Below, piece after piece: positions 12,586 through 37,140 of a stretch of DNA of 64,000 bases. The notes beneath the pieces were generated by a model that was not told where the DNA came from, searched no databases, and worked only from the letters and a program-made list of their open reading frames with translations. The DNA lies in the IMG/VR virus record IMGVR_UViG_3300005663_001084, positions 24,929 through 88,928 of that record, one strand, 5' to 3'. The stretch is from a virus. Each line of letters opens with the position of its first letter. Position 1 is the stretch's first letter. A program made the translations under genes and the position numbers.

Positions 12586-12640
12586 AATAGTACTATCGGA
12601 TTCGGACAGCTATTTGGTCAGGTAATTTTGTGGGTCAAGC
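12586..12640 (-). promoter_or_regulatory. class-1 conserved leaderless promoter
   Basis: The reverse complement reads cacaaaattacCTGACCAAATAGCtgTCCgaATCCGATAGTactattATG. Confidence 0.65.
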
Positions 12641-13774: not shown

Positions 13775-14113
13775 TCACGTCGGCCTCTTCAGCAGGCCCG
13801 GCTCCATGCGATTGTACCCGGAGTGCGGGTAGGCGCAGATGCGGCAGCTTAGCTGCGGAATGACCGACGTATGGCCGCAGTTGGGACAGTCAAAGAACCG
13901 GTTCAAGTCGGCCTCCGCCGCCTTTCTCACGGTTTCTTCGTAGCGCGCCTCCATCAGGTCCTGCGCAGCCTCAAACGCTTCCATTGCCTCAAGAATCTGG
14001 CGATACTCCGCATCGCTGAACTCACACAAGGTTCCGTGGGACTCGTCTTCCTCATCCTCGATCACCGAGAAATGCGGGTAGTGCTCGTCGCAGTCGATTG
14101 AGATCTTGGGCAT
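13775..14113 (-). CDS. zinc-ribbon protein
   Basis: Internal start MPKISIDCDEHYP. Cysteines CPNCGH...CRIC. Confidence 0.45.
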   Translation of the reverse strand: MPKISIDCDEHYPHFSVIEDEEDESHGTLCEFSDAEYRQILEAMEAFEAAQDLMEARYEETVRKAAEADLNRFFDCPNCGHTSVIPQLSCRICAYPHSGYNRMEPGLLKRPT

Positions 14114-14145
14114 GGGACGCGCTCCTCTCCTACCCTGTGGCATCT

Positions 14146-14364
14146 TCAGGCCACGTGGCCTGTCGGTTTCTTGATGGACTCCTCCAGGACGGCCTTCACC
14201 TCGATGCGCCAGCGCCCGTGCCAACCGCACTTGTCACAATCCAGAGTCAGATCCTCGTCGCGACCCATGTGCCCGCAGTCTACGCTGAACTTCGAGCCGC
14301 AGCCCGGACAGGTGGCCCTCACGTGCATGTGGCTAATTTCGCAGTAGTCGATCTTGACGTCCAT
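14146..14364 (-). CDS. zinc-ribbon protein (72 aa)
   Basis: CPGCGSK...CDKCGWHG. Its ATG abuts a class-1 promoter. Confidence 0.5.
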   Translation of the reverse strand: MDVKIDYCEISHMHVRATCPGCGSKFSVDCGHMGRDEDLTLDCDKCGWHGRWRIEVKAVLEESIKKPTGHVA

Positions 14365-14418
14365 AACAGTGTTATCGGATCGGGACGGCTATTTGGTCAG
14401 ATAATTTTGCGGGTCAGA
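14365..14418 (-). promoter_or_regulatory. class-1 conserved leaderless promoter
   Basis: The reverse complement reads cgcaaaattatCTGACCAAATAGCCgTCCcgATCCGATAACactgttATG. Confidence 0.65.
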
Positions 14419-14437
14419 GGAGGGAGAGAAATTTCGC

Positions 14438-14773
14438 TTAGTTGCCCCTCGTACGCGGCTGCCGCGTCTCGGGGTCCATCTCGTACGTCATCACTTCGTT
14501 GCAGAAAGTAATCGTCCCGCCGCCAGACAGTTTGCCGTCCCACACCTTGCCCCACGTCTCGTCTTCCCGCGAGCCAGTGATTGTGACACGGAACCCTACG
14601 TGTTCGCCTTCAGCGAGAACCCATGATGCCCCCGTCCAGTCTACACCTTCCGCCGGTTCCGCAACCCGCTGTCCCAGCGGATAACACAGCACCGTCTTGT
14701 TGCTAGGCATGGGAGTCTCGTCTTCAGGAGCCTCAGTGAGGAGGTGTCGGAGAGCTTTGCGGGTCTGATCCAT
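14438..14773 (-). CDS. L-family protein 5 (111 aa)
   Basis: Internal start MDQTRKALRHLLTEAPE of ORF 14438..15253. Confidence 0.65.
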   Translation of the reverse strand: MDQTRKALRHLLTEAPEDETPMPSNKTVLCYPLGQRVAEPAEGVDWTGASWVLAEGEHVGFRVTITGSREDETWGKVWDGKLSGGGTITFCNEVMTYEMDPETRQPRTRGN

Positions 14774-14836
14774 GGGCAGCAGTATACCTGGATATTCGAG
14801 GATTGCGAAATTGAAACGGGCAAAAATTTTGTGTGG
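14774..14836 (-). promoter_or_regulatory. class-2 upstream motif with a TATACT leaderless -10
   Basis: The reverse complement reads CACACAAAATTTTTGCCCGTTTCAATTTCGCAatcctcgaatatccaggTATACTgctgcccATG. Confidence 0.55.
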
Positions 14837-14837
14837 C

Positions 14838-15362
14838 TCAGGTCTGTAGGTCCAGGCGCAGGAAGATGGCTTCGTAATTCTCCCGGGACTCGCGATGCGT
14901 CTCCACAAAGCCAAAACGCTCGTACAAGTGGTGGGCCGCCCGCTCGTCGTCGAGATCAGACGTAAACAGCTTGAGGCACTCGTAGCCCTCATCCTTGGCC
15001 CGCTGAATCGTGAAGCGCAGCAAATCGGTCCCCAGGCCCTGCTTCCGGTGGTCGGGATGAACGCAGAACCAACCGACCCAGATCGCCTCGGGCGTAGGAA
15101 TCTCGTTGTAGAAGCCAGTAACCCCAGTGACCACACCGTTTTCAATAGCAACCCAGTAGCGAATGTCGGAGCACTCGTGGGCTTCCATGAAATCGGTGTG
15201 GGACCCAGGACGGGTGGCCTCCTCAAAGCAGCGCTTGATGGATTCCTGGTCATCGTCCTTGAACACCTGCTGCGTCAACAGCATGGCCTGATCGGCGAAC
15301 TCAGCGGTGAGCGGCAAGGGCTTCACAACAGTATTATTGGATCGGAAGGCCTGTTTACCCAA
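14838..15362 (-). CDS. GNAT family N-acetyltransferase
   Basis: Motif VHPDHRKQGLGTDLL (GNAT motif A) and C-terminal YERFGF. A GTG start near 15326, 6 nt after the promoter GATAAT-like -10, is equally likely. Confidence 0.7.
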   Translation of the reverse strand: MGKQAFRSNNTVVKPLPLTAEFADQAMLLTQQVFKDDDQESIKRCFEEATRPGSHTDFMEAHECSDIRYWVAIENGVVTGVTGFYNEIPTPEAIWVGWFCVHPDHRKQGLGTDLLRFTIQRAKDEGYECLKLFTSDLDDERAAHHLYERFGFVETHRESRENYEAIFLRLDLQT

Positions 15363-15375
15363 GGAAATCCGACTC
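15327..15375 (-). promoter_or_regulatory. class-1 leaderless promoter variant
   Basis: The reverse complement reads atttccTTGGGTAAAcAGgCCtTCCgATCCaATAATactgttGTG. Confidence 0.5.
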
Positions 15376-15867
15376 GGGAAACCTCTTCGCGCGTCGCATG
15401 AGAGCCTCAGGCGTCATCCGGGGGTGCATCAGGTCGGTGACATCGACCTTGATGGCCTCCCGCTGATCCCAGACGTCGAGGTAGACCGTGTCGCCCAGCG
15501 TCAGGCCGGGCAGCAGGACGCGCAGGCGATTCAGAACCTCGGAGTCGAGCGTGGGCACCGTAATCCCGTCGTCGTAGCCGCGAATCCAGCCGTGTTCTAG
15601 CGCTTCGGCCTCAACCCGTTGGCGGTCGTGGGGATCGTCGGAAACCGTGCTCACCTCGTCCAGCAACTCCTCGATGCCCGGGTCGCCAGGGTACATCTCA
15701 GGAAAGCGCCTCAAGGCCTCAGCGGCGTGCGTCGTCCAGCCACTCCCAGTCCAGCCACTCCCAATGTTGATGTACTCGCCGTCGGGCAGGAGCCACCAGC
15801 GGCCCAGCCATGTGGACTCGCGGGCCTCGGTGAGGATGGAACGGATGGCGTGACGGGTGGAATCCAT
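15355..15867 (-). CDS. L-family protein 6; WxLPDG-domain paralog of protein 7
   Basis: N-terminus MDSTRHAIRSILTEAR. Motifs WWLLPDGEYINIGSGW and HGWIRGYDDG. Confidence 0.7.
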   Translation of the reverse strand: MDSTRHAIRSILTEARESTWLGRWWLLPDGEYINIGSGWTGSGWTTHAAEALRRFPEMYPGDPGIEELLDEVSTVSDDPHDRQRVEAEALEHGWIRGYDDGITVPTLDSEVLNRLRVLLPGLTLGDTVYLDVWDQREAIKVDVTDLMHPRMTPEALMRRAKRFPESDFLG

Positions 15868-16391
15868 TAGGCCTGCCGCGTGACTTGGGCAGGATGCTTT
15901 GCCAGCAGAACCGTCTCCACATCGGCGTACATGTACCCACTGCCATATTCGAGCAGGATTTTGCCCTTCGTGGCACCCCGGTCGAGCAGGAACGTCTGTA
16001 TACGCCTCAGCGACTCAGCATCGAACTCCAGCATGTCGAAGCCGCCGGTATCGGTTACACGAATCCAGCCATCCCGGATCGCCACCTGCTCAGGGTTGTT
16101 CATGTAGCGCGCGACGAAGTCAGGCTTCTTGGCGTACTCCCGAGCAATATCGGCGTGGACGTCGTACCAGGGGCCGTCGAAGGTCTCGTCCATGATGTCC
16201 TGCTCAGAGGCCGACAGGAACCCCCAGTCGATCTCAGCAGCGACGGCCAGAGCAGCCGCCTCGTGATTCCAGCCACTGTCTTCAACAGTCACAACCTCGC
16301 CATCAGGCAGAATCCAGTAATCAGCACGGAGCACGTCGGCAGCATCGGACTCAGTGAGCAGCTTTCGGATGGCGTGACGGGTCTGATCCAT
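15867..16391 (-). CDS. L-family protein 7; WxLPDG-domain paralog of protein 6
   Basis: N-terminus MDQTRHAIRKLLTESD. Motifs YWILPDGEVVTVEDSGW and DGWIRVTDTGG. Confidence 0.7.
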   Translation of the reverse strand: MDQTRHAIRKLLTESDAADVLRADYWILPDGEVVTVEDSGWNHEAAALAVAAEIDWGFLSASEQDIMDETFDGPWYDVHADIAREYAKKPDFVARYMNNPEQVAIRDGWIRVTDTGGFDMLEFDAESLRRIQTFLLDRGATKGKILLEYGSGYMYADVETVLLAKHPAQVTRQA

Positions 16392-16460
16392 GGCGAAAAC
16401 ATCATATCAGGGAATCCGGGGATCTCGAAATTGAAACGGCCCAAAATTTTGTGTGTTCGG
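16392..16460 (-). promoter_or_regulatory. class-2 upstream motif
   Basis: The reverse complement reads CGAACACACAAAATTTTGGGCCGTTTCAATTTCGAGatccccggattccctGATATGatgttttcgccATG. Confidence 0.5.
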
Positions 16461-16461
16461 A

Positions 16462-16992
16462 TCAGGCCTCATCCCGTTGGATAGCCTCGTCAAGCGCCTT
16501 TACCCAGCCCGACCACTTGTTGTGCCTGCGCTGCGTTGTTTCGAGAGACGTCTCGGCACGCCGGATCTGTCTGGTGTCGGCCTCCTTACGGGCCTTGTTA
16601 AGCCACTCTTGAGCGTTGCGAAGGCGGGTCTCAGTCTGCACCTGATATTTGTAGCAGTAGCCGCGCAGGCTCGCCAGAGGGGAGGTGTGCAGTTCCATAC
16701 CGCAGTGCGGACAGAAGCGGGTGTCTCGGTTTTGTCCGCAACAGAAACGACGTCCGGCCATGGGGAGAGGACCGATCATACCACGTGCCCAGGTACTGAT
16801 CTCGGCCTCCGTCGCCGAACCGCAGCGGGGGCGCGCGAGCAAGCGAACAGACAAGGCCTCGCGCGGGTGCTCGCCGTCAAGCAGGTCGCGGCCGACTTTT
16901 ATGTCAGATGAGGATAAGACATTCTTCGCCCCGGTAGTCAGGTCGTCGAAGCCCGGCAAGTCTCGCACAGGTGTGTCCAGCGGGACGTCCAT
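16462..16992 (-). CDS. zinc-ribbon protein (176 aa)
   Basis: Internal start MDVPLDTPV lies exactly 6 nt after the GATAAT of a class-1 promoter. Cysteines CPHCGMEL and CCGQNRDTRFC. Confidence 0.55.
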   Translation of the reverse strand: MDVPLDTPVRDLPGFDDLTTGAKNVLSSSDIKVGRDLLDGEHPREALSVRLLARPRCGSATEAEISTWARGMIGPLPMAGRRFCCGQNRDTRFCPHCGMELHTSPLASLRGYCYKYQVQTETRLRNAQEWLNKARKEADTRQIRRAETSLETTQRRHNKWSGWVKALDEAIQRDEA

Positions 16993-17040
16993 AACAGTAT
17001 TATCGGCCTGCGAGGGCAATTTGGGCAGGTGAAAATCAGG
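16993..17040 (-). promoter_or_regulatory. class-1 leaderless promoter variant
   Basis: The reverse complement reads gattttcaCCTGCCCAAATtGCCcTCgcaggCCGATAATactgttATG. Confidence 0.55.
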
Positions 17041-17761
17041 AAACCAGGATCTTAATGCCCAGCCCGGCCTCCAGCTTCTCAACGGTAGAGCGACGAACAG
17101 CCTTCTTGCTCTGATAGAATATGTGATAGATCGTGTCTTCCGGCACGCCACAAGTCCGCGCAGTCTCGGCCAGATTTCGATCACGCAGAACTTCTCGGAC
17201 GACCTCAACTGGAACGTTGCGGCCTGCATCCGGACGTGGCATGTCCTCGGAGGCGTGACGTTTTCCATGACAGTCGGAGCAGAGCCAAAGCACATCCAGG
17301 CGACGGCTGTAGTCCTCGTGGTGAGCCTCCAGCCGCCCATCGGCACCACACTCCGAACAGCAGTCCGGTTTGACCATACGGCCACGCAGAACAGCGCTCT
17401 CAACCGCACTGCGCGCCAGATAGCGGTCACGGTGCTTGGCATACGAACGGTTCCTGTACTCGCGTTGCTGCTTGTTGATGTGCTCTCGATTATTCGTGGC
17501 GTAGGCCTTCGCAGAAGAATTACGACAGTCCCGGCACTGATTCGCGAGACCGTCGGCCTTCTTTCGATTTCGATGGTGGGCAGAGATGGGTTGGGTCTGG
17601 CGGCACTTCGAGCAACGCTTTACAGCCACGTCCTTACAGTGCGGACACAAAGTCAGGCCCTCGTCTATCGCATCAGCGAGACGTATGATCCTTGGCTCAG
17701 CCATGCAGCTTGCGATCACGTGGTAGTGCTCGTCTTGGCCAGCGAAGTAGGAAATAAGCAT
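17036..17761 (-). CDS. HNH endonuclease with N-terminal Cys-rich region and C-terminal HTH
   Basis: HNH signature CSECGADGRLEAHHEDYSRRLDVLWLCSDCHGKRH. C-terminal segment TARTCGVPEDTIYHIF. Confidence 0.65.
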   Translation of the reverse strand: MLISYFAGQDEHYHVIASCMAEPRIIRLADAIDEGLTLCPHCKDVAVKRCSKCRQTQPISAHHRNRKKADGLANQCRDCRNSSAKAYATNNREHINKQQREYRNRSYAKHRDRYLARSAVESAVLRGRMVKPDCCSECGADGRLEAHHEDYSRRLDVLWLCSDCHGKRHASEDMPRPDAGRNVPVEVVREVLRDRNLAETARTCGVPEDTIYHIFYQSKKAVRRSTVEKLEAGLGIKILVS

Positions 17762-18060
17762 AATGTATCCTCAAAACGTATCTTCTCCAACGTACCAGGA
17801 AATTAGGCGATTTCAAAGAGTAAAGGTGAAAAATTTCTGTGTGTTCGCCTGGGCCACCCCCACCCACCCCCTTTCTATCCCACAGGGGACCCCTGATATC
17901 CAAGGGATAGAAAGGACCCCCCTCCCAGGGGCCGGTGTACCGGCCTGGGGCGTCACTGGGCTGCCCACCGGCCCGCAGAGCGGGCTTGTGGGTCACAGGT
18001 GGCTGGGAGTGAGCGACAACAGGTGTTGAGGTGCACAGGTGAGCGGCAACGATGTTCCAC

Positions 18061-18108
18061 GGGGAACAAAGCGGCCCCTGATTGCGAGACATGGCAATCA
18101 GGGGCCGC
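18061..18108 (-). terminator. possible intrinsic terminator hairpin
   Basis: Perfect 15-bp stem GCGGCCCCTGATTGC, 8-nt loop, then GCAATCAGGGGCCGC. A TTTGTT tract follows on the minus strand. Confidence 0.45.
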
Positions 18109-18369
18109 TGGTGTATTGAGGCCGGAAGGCCGAGGTCAGACCACAGCCCTCCGGCTGGACAGGACCTGCTCGTCTCTGGTGGACGGGTGCAGGAGCTTGG
18201 GCTCACTCTACCTCTGGCTGATGGGCGTGTCAACCCTAGCGTTGGGCTGGCAGTCAGGCTGGCTGACCGAATAGAACCCCTCCGTTGATAGCGCTTCGCT
18301 AGGCCTCTCTTATAGAGAGAGTCTAGCGAGAGGCTGTACCCAGATAAAGATCATCCAGCGCTCCTTAGC

Positions 18370-18398
18370 TCTTGACAGACAGAGCCACAGAGTATAAG
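18370..18398 (+). promoter_or_regulatory. sigma70-like promoter for the HNH gene
   Basis: TCTTGACA-N15/17-TATAAG. A GGAGAG ribosome-binding site lies 7 nt before ATG 18427. Confidence 0.45.
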
Positions 18399-18426
18399 CT
18401 CCCTGAACCAGTTACGGAGAGCCAGA

Positions 18427-18954
18427 ATGGAAGAGCAGTGGAGGGTTATCCCCAGCGTCCCGTACTACGAGATCAGCGACCATGGTAGGGTTAGACGACT
18501 GGTGCCAGCTATTGGTACCTGGGTTGGCAGGGTCAAGACACCCTACGTCACAGCCAACGGCTACCTGAAGATCTCGTTGTCCGTGGACAAGAAGAGGTTC
18601 CAGCGCTTCGTCCACAGGTTGGTGGCAGAGGCGTTCATCGGTCCGATCCCAGACCTGCACCACGTCCATCACCTGGACCACGACAAGCAGAACAACCGGG
18701 CCACGAACCTGGAATGCCTGTCCCGCCGCCAGAACCAGCAGCTTACCCACACCACGCCGGTCAAGCGCAGCGCCATGGGCGGCATCCCTGAGATGCTGGT
18801 CCAGGCCTGGGCCAGGGGCTGGATGTTATGCGACGTGGCCGCTCAGCTTGAAGTGGACGAGGCACAGCTTAGCCGCTGGCTGCTACGGGAGGAGCTACCC
18901 AACGGTCGGCAGGCTGAGATCAGCCAGCGCCTGTGGTCGCTCGTGATAGGCTAG
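18427..18954 (+). CDS. HNH homing endonuclease (NUMOD4 plus HNH_3 type)
   Basis: Motifs PYYEISDHGRVRRL and HHVHHLDHDKQNNRATNLECLSRRQN. Confidence 0.75.
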   Translation: MEEQWRVIPSVPYYEISDHGRVRRLVPAIGTWVGRVKTPYVTANGYLKISLSVDKKRFQRFVHRLVAEAFIGPIPDLHHVHHLDHDKQNNRATNLECLSRRQNQQLTHTTPVKRSAMGGIPEMLVQAWARGWMLCDVAAQLEVDEAQLSRWLLREELPNGRQAEISQRLWSLVIG

Positions 18955-20166: not shown

Positions 20167-20919
20167 GGGGTGGGGCTCTCCTGCACTCGGGTCCTATCCG
20201 CCAGTCACCATACCGGGACGCGCCACGCGCGTCAAGGACTTTTCGTGAGATTTGCTACATTTTCTTGTGGGAGTTTATCAACAGGTCGTCAACAACGCCT
20301 CCTCCGCCCGGCCGCCAGCGTAGTCAGAGCCAATACCTGTGTAGCATACGTCCAGTCTCACCGGGGTGGAGCGGAGGAGGGGCCAACGAAGTGTTCAGAA
20401 ACTCGCGGAAATCTCGCGTGCCAGCGTGACCCCTCGCACCCCCGACACTTATCTTCTGTCTATGTGTAGGCTATCACTACACTTAGTTGTGTAACACGTT
20501 ACATTGCTACATATAGCATGCTACATCCTTCTCACCTGCCCGATCCCCAGGTCGCTGCACCGTGACCACCCGACATCTGTGTCCGCCGGTGGCGGCTGGT
20601 GACTCTGTAACCCGTTGGCCTCATTGACCTCACTCATTGTTGCACTTTTGTTGCAGTCTTATTTCAATGGGCTGCCGGTAGCCGCTGTCCAAGTTGAGCC
20701 GCTGTCTGGACTGGGGGCGCTGGGCTGTCCACATCTTGGACTGCCAGCTTATCCACATACTGTCAACATGACCATGTCGTTATGGCGCAGTGACACACCT
20801 AACGCATCCCAATCCAGTTCAATTTGGAGCCTATTATTTACATTGAGCCGTTGTTGTTGCAGTTATTTACAGTTACTGCGTTGAGGGCACCGGCCGCACG
20901 GCGGCCCGGCCCATGGGAG

Positions 20920-20970
20920 GGTGGGAGGATTTACATGACCAAAAAGCCGTCCGAATCCGATAATACCTGT
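20920..20970 (+). promoter_or_regulatory. class-1 conserved leaderless promoter
   Basis: ttaCATGACCAAAAAGCCgTCCgaATCCGATAATAcctgtATG. It lies inside track ORF 20824..21969. Confidence 0.6.
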
Positions 20971-23098: not shown

Positions 23099-23145
23099 GG
23101 CAGGCAGTATACCCGGTGGGCCTCAGCATGGCGAGTAGAGCCTCT
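23099..23145 (-). promoter_or_regulatory. TATACT leaderless promoter
   Basis: The reverse complement reads TTGACTcacc...ccaccgggTATACTgcctgccGTG. Compare the 14774 copy, gTATACTgctgcccATG. Confidence 0.45.
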
Positions 23146-24721: not shown

Positions 24722-24964
24722 TCATGCCGTCACGCCCATCTCCTTCAGCTTTTCAAAGACATCCTCGGGGATCTTCTCCCAGAAGACGATGTGCCGGAGC
24801 TTGTAGCCGCCCTGCTGAGGTTTATGGAGCCAGAGCAGCGGGTGCTTGCTAGTGATGAGGCTGCGGAAGGCGGGGCCTTGGACATGCCCGCCGTGGTCAG
24901 GCGTGCTCAGGTAGTACTGCGTCTCTTCGGTGTAGCAGACGTAGTATCGGGTCCGGCTGGGCAT
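24722..24964 (-). CDS. hypothetical protein
   Basis: ORF. Confidence 0.4.
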   Translation of the reverse strand: MPSRTRYYVCYTEETQYYLSTPDHGGHVQGPAFRSLITSKHPLLWLHKPQQGGYKLRHIVFWEKIPEDVFEKLKEMGVTA

Positions 24965-34856: not shown

Positions 34857-35786
34857 ATGAAAGAAGTCAGCCCCCCGGCGGCAGATGTCGGCGTCCTAGT
34901 CGGCAGGTTCCAAGTCCACAAACTCCACGAAGCACACCTGGAACTGATCAGGCACGTGGTCAAGCACCACGACCGCGTGATGATCTTCCTGGGCATGTCG
35001 CCGTGCCGCGTCACGAGGAACAACCCCCTCGACTTCGACGCCCGCAAAGCGATGATCCAGGACGCCTTCCCGGACGTAAGTGTCTACTACGTCAGGGACT
35101 GCCGACCCGATGACCTGTGGTCTAAGCGCCTCGACAACATGATCTATGAGCACATCAAGCCGGGCGCGAAGGTCCTGCTGTACGGTGGGCGCGACGCGTT
35201 CATCAAGCACTACGAAGGCAAGATCCCCACGCGCGAGTTGGAGCAGGAGGTCTTCATCTCGGGCACCGCCGTGCGCAACACCATCGCCAACACCGTGCCC
35301 AAGACGACCGACTTCCGCGCCGGGGTCATCTGGGCCTCCCAGAATCAGTACCCGCGTGCCATCCCCACCGTCGACGTGGCCGTCTGGGACGAGACCGGCG
35401 AGAAGCTCCTACTGGCCCGCAAGCCCGACGAGGATCTCTACCGCTTCATCGGCGGCTTTGCCACTGGCCCAACGTACGAGTCCGACGCGCGGCGCGAGGT
35501 CGACGAGGAAGCGCACATCGCCATCACCGATCCAGTCTACGTGGGCTCGCATCAGGTCGACGACTGGCGCTACCGCAGCGAGGCCGACAAGATCGTCACG
35601 CTCCTATTCGAGGCCAAGCGGCTCAGCGGCAACCCACGTCCCGACGATGACATCGCTGAACTCAAGTGGTTTGATTTCGCAACACTCCGCGACGAAATGG
35701 TCGTCCCGGAGCACCGTCCACTCCTCAAGATGCTTCAATGCAAGAGGGAGACACACCATGAAGACGAACATCGTACTGGCGACTGA
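34857..35786 (+). CDS. nadM: bifunctional NMN adenylyltransferase/Nudix hydrolase (NadM-Nudix type)
   Basis: N-terminal cytidylyltransferase-fold block VLVGRFQVHKLHEAHLELI. Nudix box GGFATGPTYESDARREVDEEAHI. The 3' end overlaps the nadV start. Confidence 0.8.
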   Translation: MKEVSPPAADVGVLVGRFQVHKLHEAHLELIRHVVKHHDRVMIFLGMSPCRVTRNNPLDFDARKAMIQDAFPDVSVYYVRDCRPDDLWSKRLDNMIYEHIKPGAKVLLYGGRDAFIKHYEGKIPTRELEQEVFISGTAVRNTIANTVPKTTDFRAGVIWASQNQYPRAIPTVDVAVWDETGEKLLLARKPDEDLYRFIGGFATGPTYESDARREVDEEAHIAITDPVYVGSHQVDDWRYRSEADKIVTLLFEAKRLSGNPRPDDDIAELKWFDFATLRDEMVVPEHRPLLKMLQCKRETHHEDEHRTGD

Positions 35787-37140
35787 CAGCTACAAGCTCA
35801 CCCACTGGAATCAGTACCCACGCGGCACGGAGAAGGTCTACTCCTACTTCGAGGCGAGGCCCGGCGCGAAGTACCGCGACACCGTGTTCTTCGGTCTCCA
35901 GTACATCATCGCCGAGTACCTCGCAGGCCACGTCGTCACGACCCAGAAGATCGACGAGGCCGAGGCGTTGGCAGCCCAGCACTTCGGCAATCCGAACATC
36001 TTCAACCGCGCCCGCTGGGACCACATCGTCGACCAGCACGACGGCCGCCTGCCTGTCCGCATCAAGGCGGTGCCCGAGGGCACGCCGGTCCCTGTCAACA
36101 ACGTGATGATGACCATCGAGAACACGGACCCGGCCTGCTACTGGCTGACCAACCACCTGGAGACGATCCTCACGCACGTGTGGTACCCGTCCACCGTGGC
36201 CACGCAGAGCCGGGAGGCCAAGCGGATCTGCAAGAGGTACCTCGAAGAGACTGCCGAGTCCGCTGGCGGCCTGGACTTCATGCTGCACGACTTCGGCTAC
36301 CGTGGCGTGTCGTCGGTGGAGTCGGCTGGCCTCGGCGGCGCTGGTCACCTCGTCAACTTCCACGGCACTGACACCATCGCGGCGATGGAACTGCTGCGTC
36401 AGTACTACGATGCCGACGTACCCGCGTTCAGCGTACCGGCCACCGAACACAGCGTGATGACCGCGCACGGTGCAGACGGTGAGAACTGGGTGCTGTCGCA
36501 ACTGCTCGATGCCTACCCTACCGGCATCCTGTCCATCGTGATCGACTCGTACGACTACCGGAAGTTCATCAAGATGGCAGGCACGACGTTCAAGGATCGC
36601 ATCCTTGCCCGCGACGGCAAGGTCGTCTTCCGTCCCGACAGCGGAGATCCGTGCGAGGTGACACTGGAGGTCCTGGAACTGCTGGGCGAGTACTTCGGGT
36701 CAGCCGACGGTAAGCCCGGCTACAAGATCCTGCACCCCCAGGTCGGCGTGATCTGGGGCGATGGCATCGATCTCGAAGACATGGAGCGCATCCTGGCCGA
36801 CATCACCTACGCGGGTTGGAGCGCCGAGAACATGGTGTTCGGCATGGGCGGCGGCCTGCTCCAGAAAGTCAACCGCGACATCCAGCGCTTCGCGTTCAAG
36901 AGCAGCTACCAGGAGCGCGGCGGCGAAGGCCACGACATCTTCAAGGAGCCCATCGACAAGACCAAGACCAGCAAGAAGGGCCGACTGAAGCTGGTGCGCC
37001 TCGAAGGCGCGCACGGCTCCACGCTGACCACCGTCGGCATCGATGATCCACGCGAGGACCTGCTGGAGACGGTCTTCGAGGGCGGTCAGGTCCTGAAACG
37101 TTACAGCCTGGACGAGATCCGCGCGAGAGCAGCACTGTAA
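35758..37140 (+). CDS. nadV: nicotinamide phosphoribosyltransferase (NAMPT/NadV)
   Basis: MKTNIVLATDSYKLTHWNQYP...FGYRGVSS...HGTDT. It is co-linear with the NAMPT family throughout. The track ORF 35146..37140 is over-extended into the nadM alternate frame. Confidence 0.85.
   Translation: MKTNIVLATDSYKLTHWNQYPRGTEKVYSYFEARPGAKYRDTVFFGLQYIIAEYLAGHVVTTQKIDEAEALAAQHFGNPNIFNRARWDHIVDQHDGRLPVRIKAVPEGTPVPVNNVMMTIENTDPACYWLTNHLETILTHVWYPSTVATQSREAKRICKRYLEETAESAGGLDFMLHDFGYRGVSSVESAGLGGAGHLVNFHGTDTIAAMELLRQYYDADVPAFSVPATEHSVMTAHGADGENWVLSQLLDAYPTGILSIVIDSYDYRKFIKMAGTTFKDRILARDGKVVFRPDSGDPCEVTLEVLELLGEYFGSADGKPGYKILHPQVGVIWGDGIDLEDMERILADITYAGWSAENMVFGMGGGLLQKVNRDIQRFAFKSSYQERGGEGHDIFKEPIDKTKTSKKGRLKLVRLEGAHGSTLTTVGIDDPREDLLETVFEGGQVLKRYSLDEIRARAAL

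Follow-up and report, generated by a model that had tools for sequence, protein, structure and literature searches.

Upstream promoter (UP) elements of the rrnB P1 type are A/T-rich blocks that lie upstream of the -35 region and accompany cores with a weak -35. Among the sites bound by the C-terminal domains (alpha-CTDs) of RNA polymerase's alpha subunit, the distal subsite, bound by alpha-CTD II, is centred near -53 and in its optimised forms is marked by an A-tract followed by a T-tract, the proximal subsite is centred near -43, and sites further upstream can also be used (PMC3326320). In phage T4, the early promoters join UP-like A/T, a TGn motif and a -10 with conserved positions that go beyond the host consensus, and the middle promoters have a -10, often with TGn, and, replacing the -35, a MotA box 12+/-1 bp away from that -10 (PMC2988021). 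In the Pm promoter of phage Mu, the site of the Mor factor stands beside a partial UP element/alpha-CTD subsite (PMC4390567). The PeSL (promoter early stem-loop) cassettes of T4-type phages are instead repeated promoters that flank small ORFans in a variable region, with indels and replacements located at the repeats (PMC2839356). Here we describe a repeated 30-nt element found in a stretch of 64,000 nt of viral DNA (IMG/VR record IMGVR_UViG_3300005663_001084, positions 24,929 to 88,928; hereafter the window). The repeated element is very probably an upstream promoter module acting as DNA, and there is about an even chance that it is a UP-like module helping to recruit RNA polymerase.

Three copies, here called A, B and C, are present in the window, all in one orientation and clustered within 3.1 kb. 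On the minus strand, the 30-mer CACACAAAATTTTTGCCCGTTTCAATTTCG occurs exactly at 14835..14806 and with two mismatches (28/30) at 16455..16426, with 0 chance matches expected (100 shuffles). An earlier note on this DNA had placed two copies sharing about 30 bp at 14774..14836 and 16392..16460, ahead of gene 5 and of genes 7 and 6, and both the coordinates and the gene assignments are correct; the third copy, which it had called partial and located upstream of the HNH gene, turned out to be a true member of the family. In fact, a repeat search recovered one ungapped, in-register family of 52 nt at 14784-14835, 16404-16455 (81%) and 17792-17843 (67%). When the 55 nt that start with CACACA and finish with a -10-like hexamer are compared, A and B share 43 positions, A and C 36, and B and C 35, with 30 columns invariant, whereas neither A nor B had a match above 32 positions in 100 Markov-shuffled sequences of 64 kb; since copy C shares 35-36 of 55, it belongs to the family. 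No indels occur among the three copies despite 12-20 substitutions, and in each of them the hexamer comes exactly 49 nt downstream of the start of CACACA. A and B agree at 28/30 positions of the element, 15/25 of the core and 34/42 of the leader-coding DNA. With a six-copy profile (the three of the window and three from relatives), no further copy was detected in the window, in about 5.5 kb of extra flanks or in the relatives, the next best match having E=2. The genome-wide enrichment for which the earlier note had proposed a motif scan was not observed, the three copies within 3.1 kb standing against at least 16 promoters of another type, called class-1, in the 64 kb.

The 30-nt element would represent the upstream half of a composite promoter of about 55 bp, acting in cis as DNA. 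Its predicted layout on the minus strand, from 5' to 3', is CACACA, A3-4 T4-5, GSCCG, TTTCAA(A)TTTC, RWTCnCC-N3-ATTnCC, a G at -14, a sigma70-type -10-like hexamer and the start codon. Copy A (composite promoter at 14781..14835, minus strand) starts 2 nt past the stop codon of a GNAT gene (14840..14838) and consists of CACACA, A4T5 (14830..14822), GCCCG and TTTCAATTTCG, which together form the element (14835..14806), followed by the spacer RATCnCC..ATWYCC and by the hexamer TATACT (14786..14781); the gene 5 ATG (14773) then follows after 7 nt (GCTGCCC) devoid of a Shine-Dalgarno. Copy B (16401..16455, minus strand; element 16455..16426) starts 6 nt past the stop of a Zn-ribbon gene (16464..16462) and ends in an extended -10, TGA-TATGAT (hexamer 16406..16401), 9 nt before the ATG of gene 7 (16391), again with no Shine-Dalgarno. 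Copy C (17789..17843, minus strand) is a diverged member, CACACAGAAATTTTTCACCTTTACTCTTTGAAATCGCCTAATTTCC, which sits at the end of a conserved 665-nt intergenic region and has an extended -10-like TGG-TACGTT (hexamer 17794..17789), a -35-like hexamer TTGAAA 16 nt upstream of it (spacer 16), and a 27-nt leader with the Shine-Dalgarno GAGGA before the endonuclease ATG (17761). A scan for sigma70-type promoters flagged copy A (TTCGCA-17-TATACT, 9/12) and copy B (TCGAGA-16-TATGAT, with TG before the hexamer), both with a poor -35. The G at -14 is found in 3/3 copies and the complete TGn of an extended -10 in B and C; cores with a weak -35 plus TGn are a promoter type profiting from upstream help. 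Overall, the three promoters look like a local subclass of three members, a small second class with a weak -35.

The genes located downstream, all on the minus strand, are gene 5 (14438..14773), a 111-aa ORFan, after copy A; genes 7 (16391..15867) and 6 (15867..15355), together covering 15355..16391, after copy B; and an endonuclease gene of the HNH type (17036..17761; phrog_2340) after copy C. The products of genes 5, 6 and 7 begin with a shared leader, MDxTRxAIRxxLTE, hereafter the L-leader, genes 6 and 7 being ORFans as well. From these promoters, small accessory cassettes, namely the endonuclease gene and two sets of L-leader ORFans, would be transcribed as leaderless or short-leader mRNAs. 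A (near-)leaderless mRNA made from such a promoter is the simplest route for the expression of genes 5 and 7, and a promoter of this kind would be needed because these genes have no Shine-Dalgarno, start 7 and 9 nt after the hexamer and are 64-70 nt away from the preceding stop codons.

"Upstream promoter module" is a safe description because the element is DNA-level and fixed both in orientation and in distance before -10-like hexamers. A common RNA fold of the six copies has 0 pairs in its consensus, folding of the sense strand is no better than that of shuffles (minimum free energy z-scores from +0.35 to +1.18), and no terminator was found at the copies, including the space between the preceding stops and copies A and B. 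The earlier note had offered a UP-like element or a regulator site: the association with promoters at the DNA level is supported by the fixed orientation, the 49-nt distance, the lack of RNA structure and the synteny, but the two options are inseparable by sequence alone.

With the hexamer taken as -12..-7, the junction between A-tract and T-tract falls at -53/-52 in A and B and at -52/-51 in C, and the UP-like reading is favoured because this position coincides with the alpha-CTD distal subsite. As in UP elements of the rrnB P1 type, an A/T-rich block is located upstream of the -35 region and accompanies cores with a weak -35, and the succession of A-tract and T-tract with its junction at -53/-52 resembles the optimised distal subsites (PMC3326320). 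Upstream of the sigma70-type cores, an A/T-rich tract indeed lies in the stretch from about -40 to -60, the tract occupying -56..-48 and a second block -42..-34. Among the copies the tract varies (A3T5, A4T4, A4T5, A5T4), always with A before T, and the drift among orthologues (A3T5, A4T5 and A5T4) fits the expectation that the shape of the tract, and not its exact sequence, is selected. The upstream A/T blocks may therefore compensate for the poor -35 by offering a dock with a narrow minor groove to the alpha-CTDs of the host RNA polymerase; from this arrangement we infer the start sites, the alpha-CTD contact and the stimulation of transcription. A comparison can also be made with T4 early promoters, in which UP-like A/T, TGn and a -10 are joined by conserved positions beyond the host consensus (PMC2988021); unlike these, the promoters described here have a poor -35, lie in a genome with 59% G+C, number three copies and apparently yield leaderless transcripts.

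Relatives of this region were reached through the GNAT gene next to copy A, which led to three related contigs, including those designated L012 and L013. L012 is syntenic with the window (GNAT 76%, a 329-aa protein 78% and surrounding DNA 72-90% identical), and L013 is more divergent (GNAT 69%, 329-aa protein 53%); the element is retained at syntenic sites in these relatives, whose proteins are 53-78% identical. Two copies are carried by L012, one where the long intergenic region ends, in the place of copy C (L012a), and one after the gene-5 homologue, in the place of the class-1 promoter at 14380 (L012b). Both are fused to a class-1-type core (...CCCTAATTGCCATCGCAGGCC-GATAAT-ACTGTT-ATG), with CACACA 56 nt from the hexamer, 7 nt further than in the window, and the A/T junction at -60/-59. 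The first 25 nt of L012a equal window copy A (25/25), although the two copies are not orthologous. In L013, a single copy with a short core (CCACAGAAAAATTTTACTTACGACTTTCCAAATCCCCATGTTCCCGA-TATAAT-AATTT-ATG) precedes the orthologous endonuclease gene; here CACACA lies 47 nt from the hexamer and the junction at -49/-48. CACA is invariant in 6/6 copies and GSCCG is present in four, and TTTCAATTTCG is weakly kept in copy C and in L013; the distance from the end of the conserved block RWTCnCC to the hexamer downstream is 11 nt in the four short copies and 18 nt in L012. Of two contigs compared because of their NAMPT genes, L114, which comes from the same sample as L012 and probably represents the same phage, has a class-1 promoter and lacks the element, and L115 is unrelated; the motif is absent from L115 and from L014, both more distant.

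At the GNAT/gene-5 junction of L012, 54 nt comprising the stop codon and copy A are missing and GGTATACTGCTGCCTATG is kept. The two frames are fused because of this missing piece, so that L012 4956-5786, compared with window 14438-15326, carries GNAT and the gene-5 homologue as one reading frame of 276 aa, in which GGTATACT...ATG of gene 5 is retained. Cores of the GGTATACT type without the element are found at this junction and at 23113 in the window, before another L-leader gene, and since such cores also exist without it, the element is an optional add-on; no more than 3 of the at least 20 window promoters carry it. The L012 orthologue of the promoter at 14380 has CACAAAATT and 19 further nt (TTAGGCCGTTTCAAATTTC) before the -35-like hexamer. 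The module is portable because L012 joins it to a class-1 core and does without copy A, and because the 19-nt piece is absent at window 14380. Judged from these comparisons, the upstream 30 nt is a portable, optional module that is better kept than its surroundings, and in the related phages it is found joined to a class-1 core, absent, or cut to its first ~10 nt. The genes that lie between the copies also differ in L012 and L013. A 213-aa protein with sigma70 region 4 (Pfam 1.1e-12; PHROG "RNA polymerase sigma factor" 2.8e-08) is encoded at 1926-2567 of L013 and has no homologue in the 64-kb window. Among wider searches, pattern scans of IMG/VR with the element and with the class-1 core had 0 matches, and an IMG/VR scan with an alignment of the neighbouring 329-aa protein found no relative. 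Three matches in a JGI metagenome scan were all due to chance, lying inside unrelated coding DNA, and a looser pattern gave 2 IMG/VR and 97 GTDB matches, discarded as all single, mostly in AT-rich unrelated genomes, with no extended similarity and no class-1 motifs.

The class-1 promoters beside the element are strongly conserved over about 45 nt and consist of an A/T tract, cTGaCC, AAATAGCCnTCCnnATCC, GATAAT, six nt and ATG, with at least 16 copies on both strands of the 64-kb window. They were located at 1191, 2631, 9570, 12597, 14376, 15338, 17004 and 31632 on the minus strand and at 20959, 31687, 34807, 51124, 53814, 57739 and 59946 on the plus strand; the pairs 31632/31687 and 57710/57739 are divergent and stand back to back. 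In most copies (about 15) the start codon follows the hexamer by exactly six nt, and leaderless transcripts are therefore implied. The CCGATAA part resembles the -10 of sigma28-type promoters, GCCGATAA, but the distance to TAAA is about 3 nt too short. In 15 aligned class-1 promoters, positions -44..-39 are 73-100% A/T and -41/-40 are 100% A/T, so that upstream A/T blocks are a general trait of the promoters of this phage; the proximal A/T block of the class-1 promoters is a further point in favour of the UP-like reading. According to the earlier note, the A/T tract of the element recurs at several class-1 promoters; this holds for two only, with CACAAAATTA (12623..12632, minus strand) and CGCAAAATTA (14402..14411, minus strand; the element's short form) placed directly against the -35-like CTGACC in the promoters at 12601 and 14380, respectively, in both cases with the A/T junction at -41/-40. 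Between 12 and 18 kb, class-1 and the three element-bearing promoters alternate, each with one or two small genes, and the element would thus belong to cassettes interspersed with class-1 units. The class-1 promoter at 17004 has its A/T tract overlapped by the stop codon of the endonuclease gene 17036-17761.

Several points weigh against a UP-like module. The conservation of positions other than A/T (CACA in 6/6 copies, GSCCG in four, and the 25-nt identity of L012a and copy A amid DNA that is 72-90% identical) is not needed by UP elements and sets the element apart from them, as do the tract at -60/-59 in L012 and -49/-48 in L013, neither a multiple of helical turns from -53, and the second block TTTCAATTTCG, which in the window copies overlaps the expected -35 and not the proximal subsite. 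Moreover, all positions hang on the choice of the hexamer, and with three clustered copies only, the similarity and the fixed spacing could be due in part to shared descent through local duplication. The conserved non-A/T positions, the identity of non-orthologous copies and the tract shifts off helical-turn multiples would suit a binding site of a sequence-specific regulator, of phage or host origin, either an activator replacing the -35 contact (class I/II, or sigma appropriation of the MotA type) or a repressor. This explanation, for which T4 middle promoters or Mu Pm would be the models, is the main rival; it is tentative and less likely than a UP-like module, and so is its corollary that the site would define a small, separately timed regulon made of the endonuclease and the L-leader cassettes, with which the presence of the element at 3 of at least 20 window promoters is consistent. 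A conserved phage-specific box upstream of the -10 with a poor -35 is shared with T4 middle promoters, as is TGn in 2/3 copies (PMC2988021), and the end of RWTCnCC 11 nt from the hexamer comes near the MotA-box distance of 12+/-1 bp; L013 also encodes the protein with sigma70 region 4. However, unlike in T4 middle promoters and Mu Pm, the best-kept part lies at -61..-48 and not at -30, and half-site symmetry is missing: no dyad or direct-repeat half-sites were found beyond the A4T4 tract itself (CAAAATTTTG), whose palindrome centre shifts by 0, 1 or 2 nt between copies and whose extensions are not conserved. The drift of the tract composition among orthologues, the poor conservation of TTTCAATTTCG in copy C and L013, and the change in distance to the -10 by 7 nt in L012 and 2-4 nt in L013, which a face-of-helix activator should not tolerate, also speak against a regulator, and Pfam/PHROG scans of the neighbouring genes in the window gave no candidate for it. 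Homologues of MotA, AsiA and Mor were not identified, the window covering 64 kb of about 225 kb and no genome-wide search for MotA or AsiA having been made. A doubtful extension of the same idea is that the element could be the site of a novel phage activator or sigma-associated factor, marking a separate temporal class of leaderless transcripts (endonuclease and L-leader genes) whose modules serve also as recombination cassettes; if true, a lineage of huge marine-sediment phages would possess a MotA-box-like system whose sequence is unrelated to the known ones.

Common descent offers an improbable explanation in which the element has no function of its own and its copies are promoter cassettes copied or recombined locally, by descent or gene conversion, the repeats acting as PeSL-like recombination substrates. 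The copies all lie within 3.1 kb among ORFan cassettes, the similarity of A and B extends from CACACA through 42 nt of leader-coding DNA, the relatives differ in gene content between copies, and indels fall exactly at the borders of the element (the 54 nt with copy A absent in L012, and the 19-nt piece present in L012b and not at window 14380). Repeats that flank ORFans, such as gene 7, and mark the borders of the 54-nt and 19-nt indels between relatives are also the hallmark of PeSL cassettes, which provide a precedent (PMC2839356), but no stem-loop or terminator is attached to the copies and no evidence of mini-circles was found. Furthermore, descent alone would not be expected to leave 28/30 identities upstream against 15/25 in the core and 34/42 in the coding leader, and a recent simple duplication was rejected as the entire explanation because conservation of the upstream 30 nt exceeds that of the core and of the coding leader. 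The element is kept at the syntenic endonuclease promoter of L013, where the neighbouring 329-aa protein is 53% identical and neutral DNA would not be alignable, and the window copies have zero indels despite up to 20 substitutions. Finally, it is very unlikely that the element acts as RNA in read-through transcripts, serving genes 5 and 7 as a ribosome standby site or as a translational enhancer that is unstructured and rich in A/U and CA. CA-rich and A/U-rich translational enhancers exist, shuffles are more structured than the sense strand (z +0.35 to +1.18), neither gene 5 nor gene 7 has a Shine-Dalgarno, and the element, starting 2-6 nt past the upstream stop with no terminator in between, would be transcribed from upstream promoters; yet the conserved part stops 29-35 nt short of the ATG, the gene after copy C has its own GAGGA, the fusion to a class-1 core in L012 (about 15 other copies of this core have the ATG exactly 6 nt past the -10) leaves the element outside the mRNA, and strict in-register, indel-free conservation is unexpected for an unstructured enhancer. 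Other signals were discarded by eye: a sigma54 -24/-12 motif (copy A is without the GG/TTGC pair), an IHF site (poor match to WATCAANNNNTTR), an antisense promoter (a plus-strand TTGAAA has no -10 partner), and GTTTCA as a -35 with a 17-nt spacer (its partners TATCCA, TTCCCT and TTTCCT are without the T at -7).

The window is a portion of an uncultivated huge phage, as deduced from the identity of its NAMPT protein, the ~225-kb contig bearing it and the jumbo-phage matches. The NAMPT protein is 100% identical to LCGC14_0164140 ("marine sediment metagenome"), identical contigs are present in PRJNA259156, and its best phage matches are jumbo phages, with less than 50% identity. The longest NAMPT open reading frame (ORF), 35146-37140 on the plus strand (664 aa), is over-extended, the database protein of 460 aa covering only its last 69%. 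Megablast of 14000-18500 against GenBank phages gave no close relative, scans of the window for tRNAs and Rfam families were negative, and most of the ~25 ORFs scanned had no match in Pfam/PHROG. Outside this phage no homologue of gene 7 was found, the search returning only itself and a 99% variant, whose contig has 3 single-nucleotide polymorphisms (SNPs), every one inside gene 7.

At least 13 otherwise unrelated ORFs share the ~15-aa N-terminus MDxTRxAIRxxLTE(A), with minus-strand starts at 16391, 15867, 14773, 41718, 63663, 4057, 23098 (GTG), 43399, 3092, 22706, 4907, 40103 and 45688. Two of the three element copies would drive genes with this leader. The capsid-targeting sequences of T4 end in an L-x-E site of the prohead protease, and by analogy the shared N-terminus could be a candidate leader for packaging or processing.

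The long intergenic region is bordered by two divergent endonuclease genes, 17036-17761 (minus strand; phrog_2340, HNH-type), which is missing from L012 and present in L013, and 18427-18954 (plus strand; HNH_3/NUMOD4). A consensus sigma70-type promoter (TTGACA-17-TAGAGT, 10/12), conserved in L012, is located at 18233..18205 on the minus strand, within 18060-18233. About 130 nt downstream of it there are two hairpins, the last of which (18109..18070) has a perfect 16-bp stem followed by GCTTTGTT. Compared with L012, four pairs are changed on both sides and still paired, three in the 18109..18070 hairpin and one in a short stem after it, and the region 18060-18233 is a candidate small RNA or leader within the 665-nt intergenic region. 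An inverted repeat, CTTTCTATCC...GGATAGAAAG, is found in all three phages (window 17851-17912, minus strand; L012 3920-3985; L013 6600-6690, with one extra direct copy) and is followed by a G-rich run, GGGGGTGGGTGGGGGTGG, both lying 10-70 nt upstream of copy C; the inverted repeat resembles an operator or a set of iterons. L013 also contains a perfect DnaA-box sequence, TTATCCACA, and GTGACCCACA occurs further upstream in all three phages. Another AT-rich intergenic region, 20240-20880, located between divergent genes, contains repeated TTGCTACAT and GTTGCAG(T) motifs and is followed by the class-1 promoter at 20959.

The element is an ordinary kind of regulatory signal, and the phage lineage that carries it is very poorly known. 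The window belongs to a ~225-kb phage contig of Loki's Castle sediment in which almost no genes have homologues, and promoter classes offer one of the few ways of ordering such a genome into transcription units, and probably into temporal classes. Beside the dominant class-1 promoters there is a second, small class, with a UP-like or factor-binding module, that serves an endonuclease gene and leader-tagged ORFans. Its upstream module has been swapped, truncated or lost between relatives. Together, these points lead to testable predictions on how huge phages with leaderless transcripts may drive and reshuffle their accessory genes.

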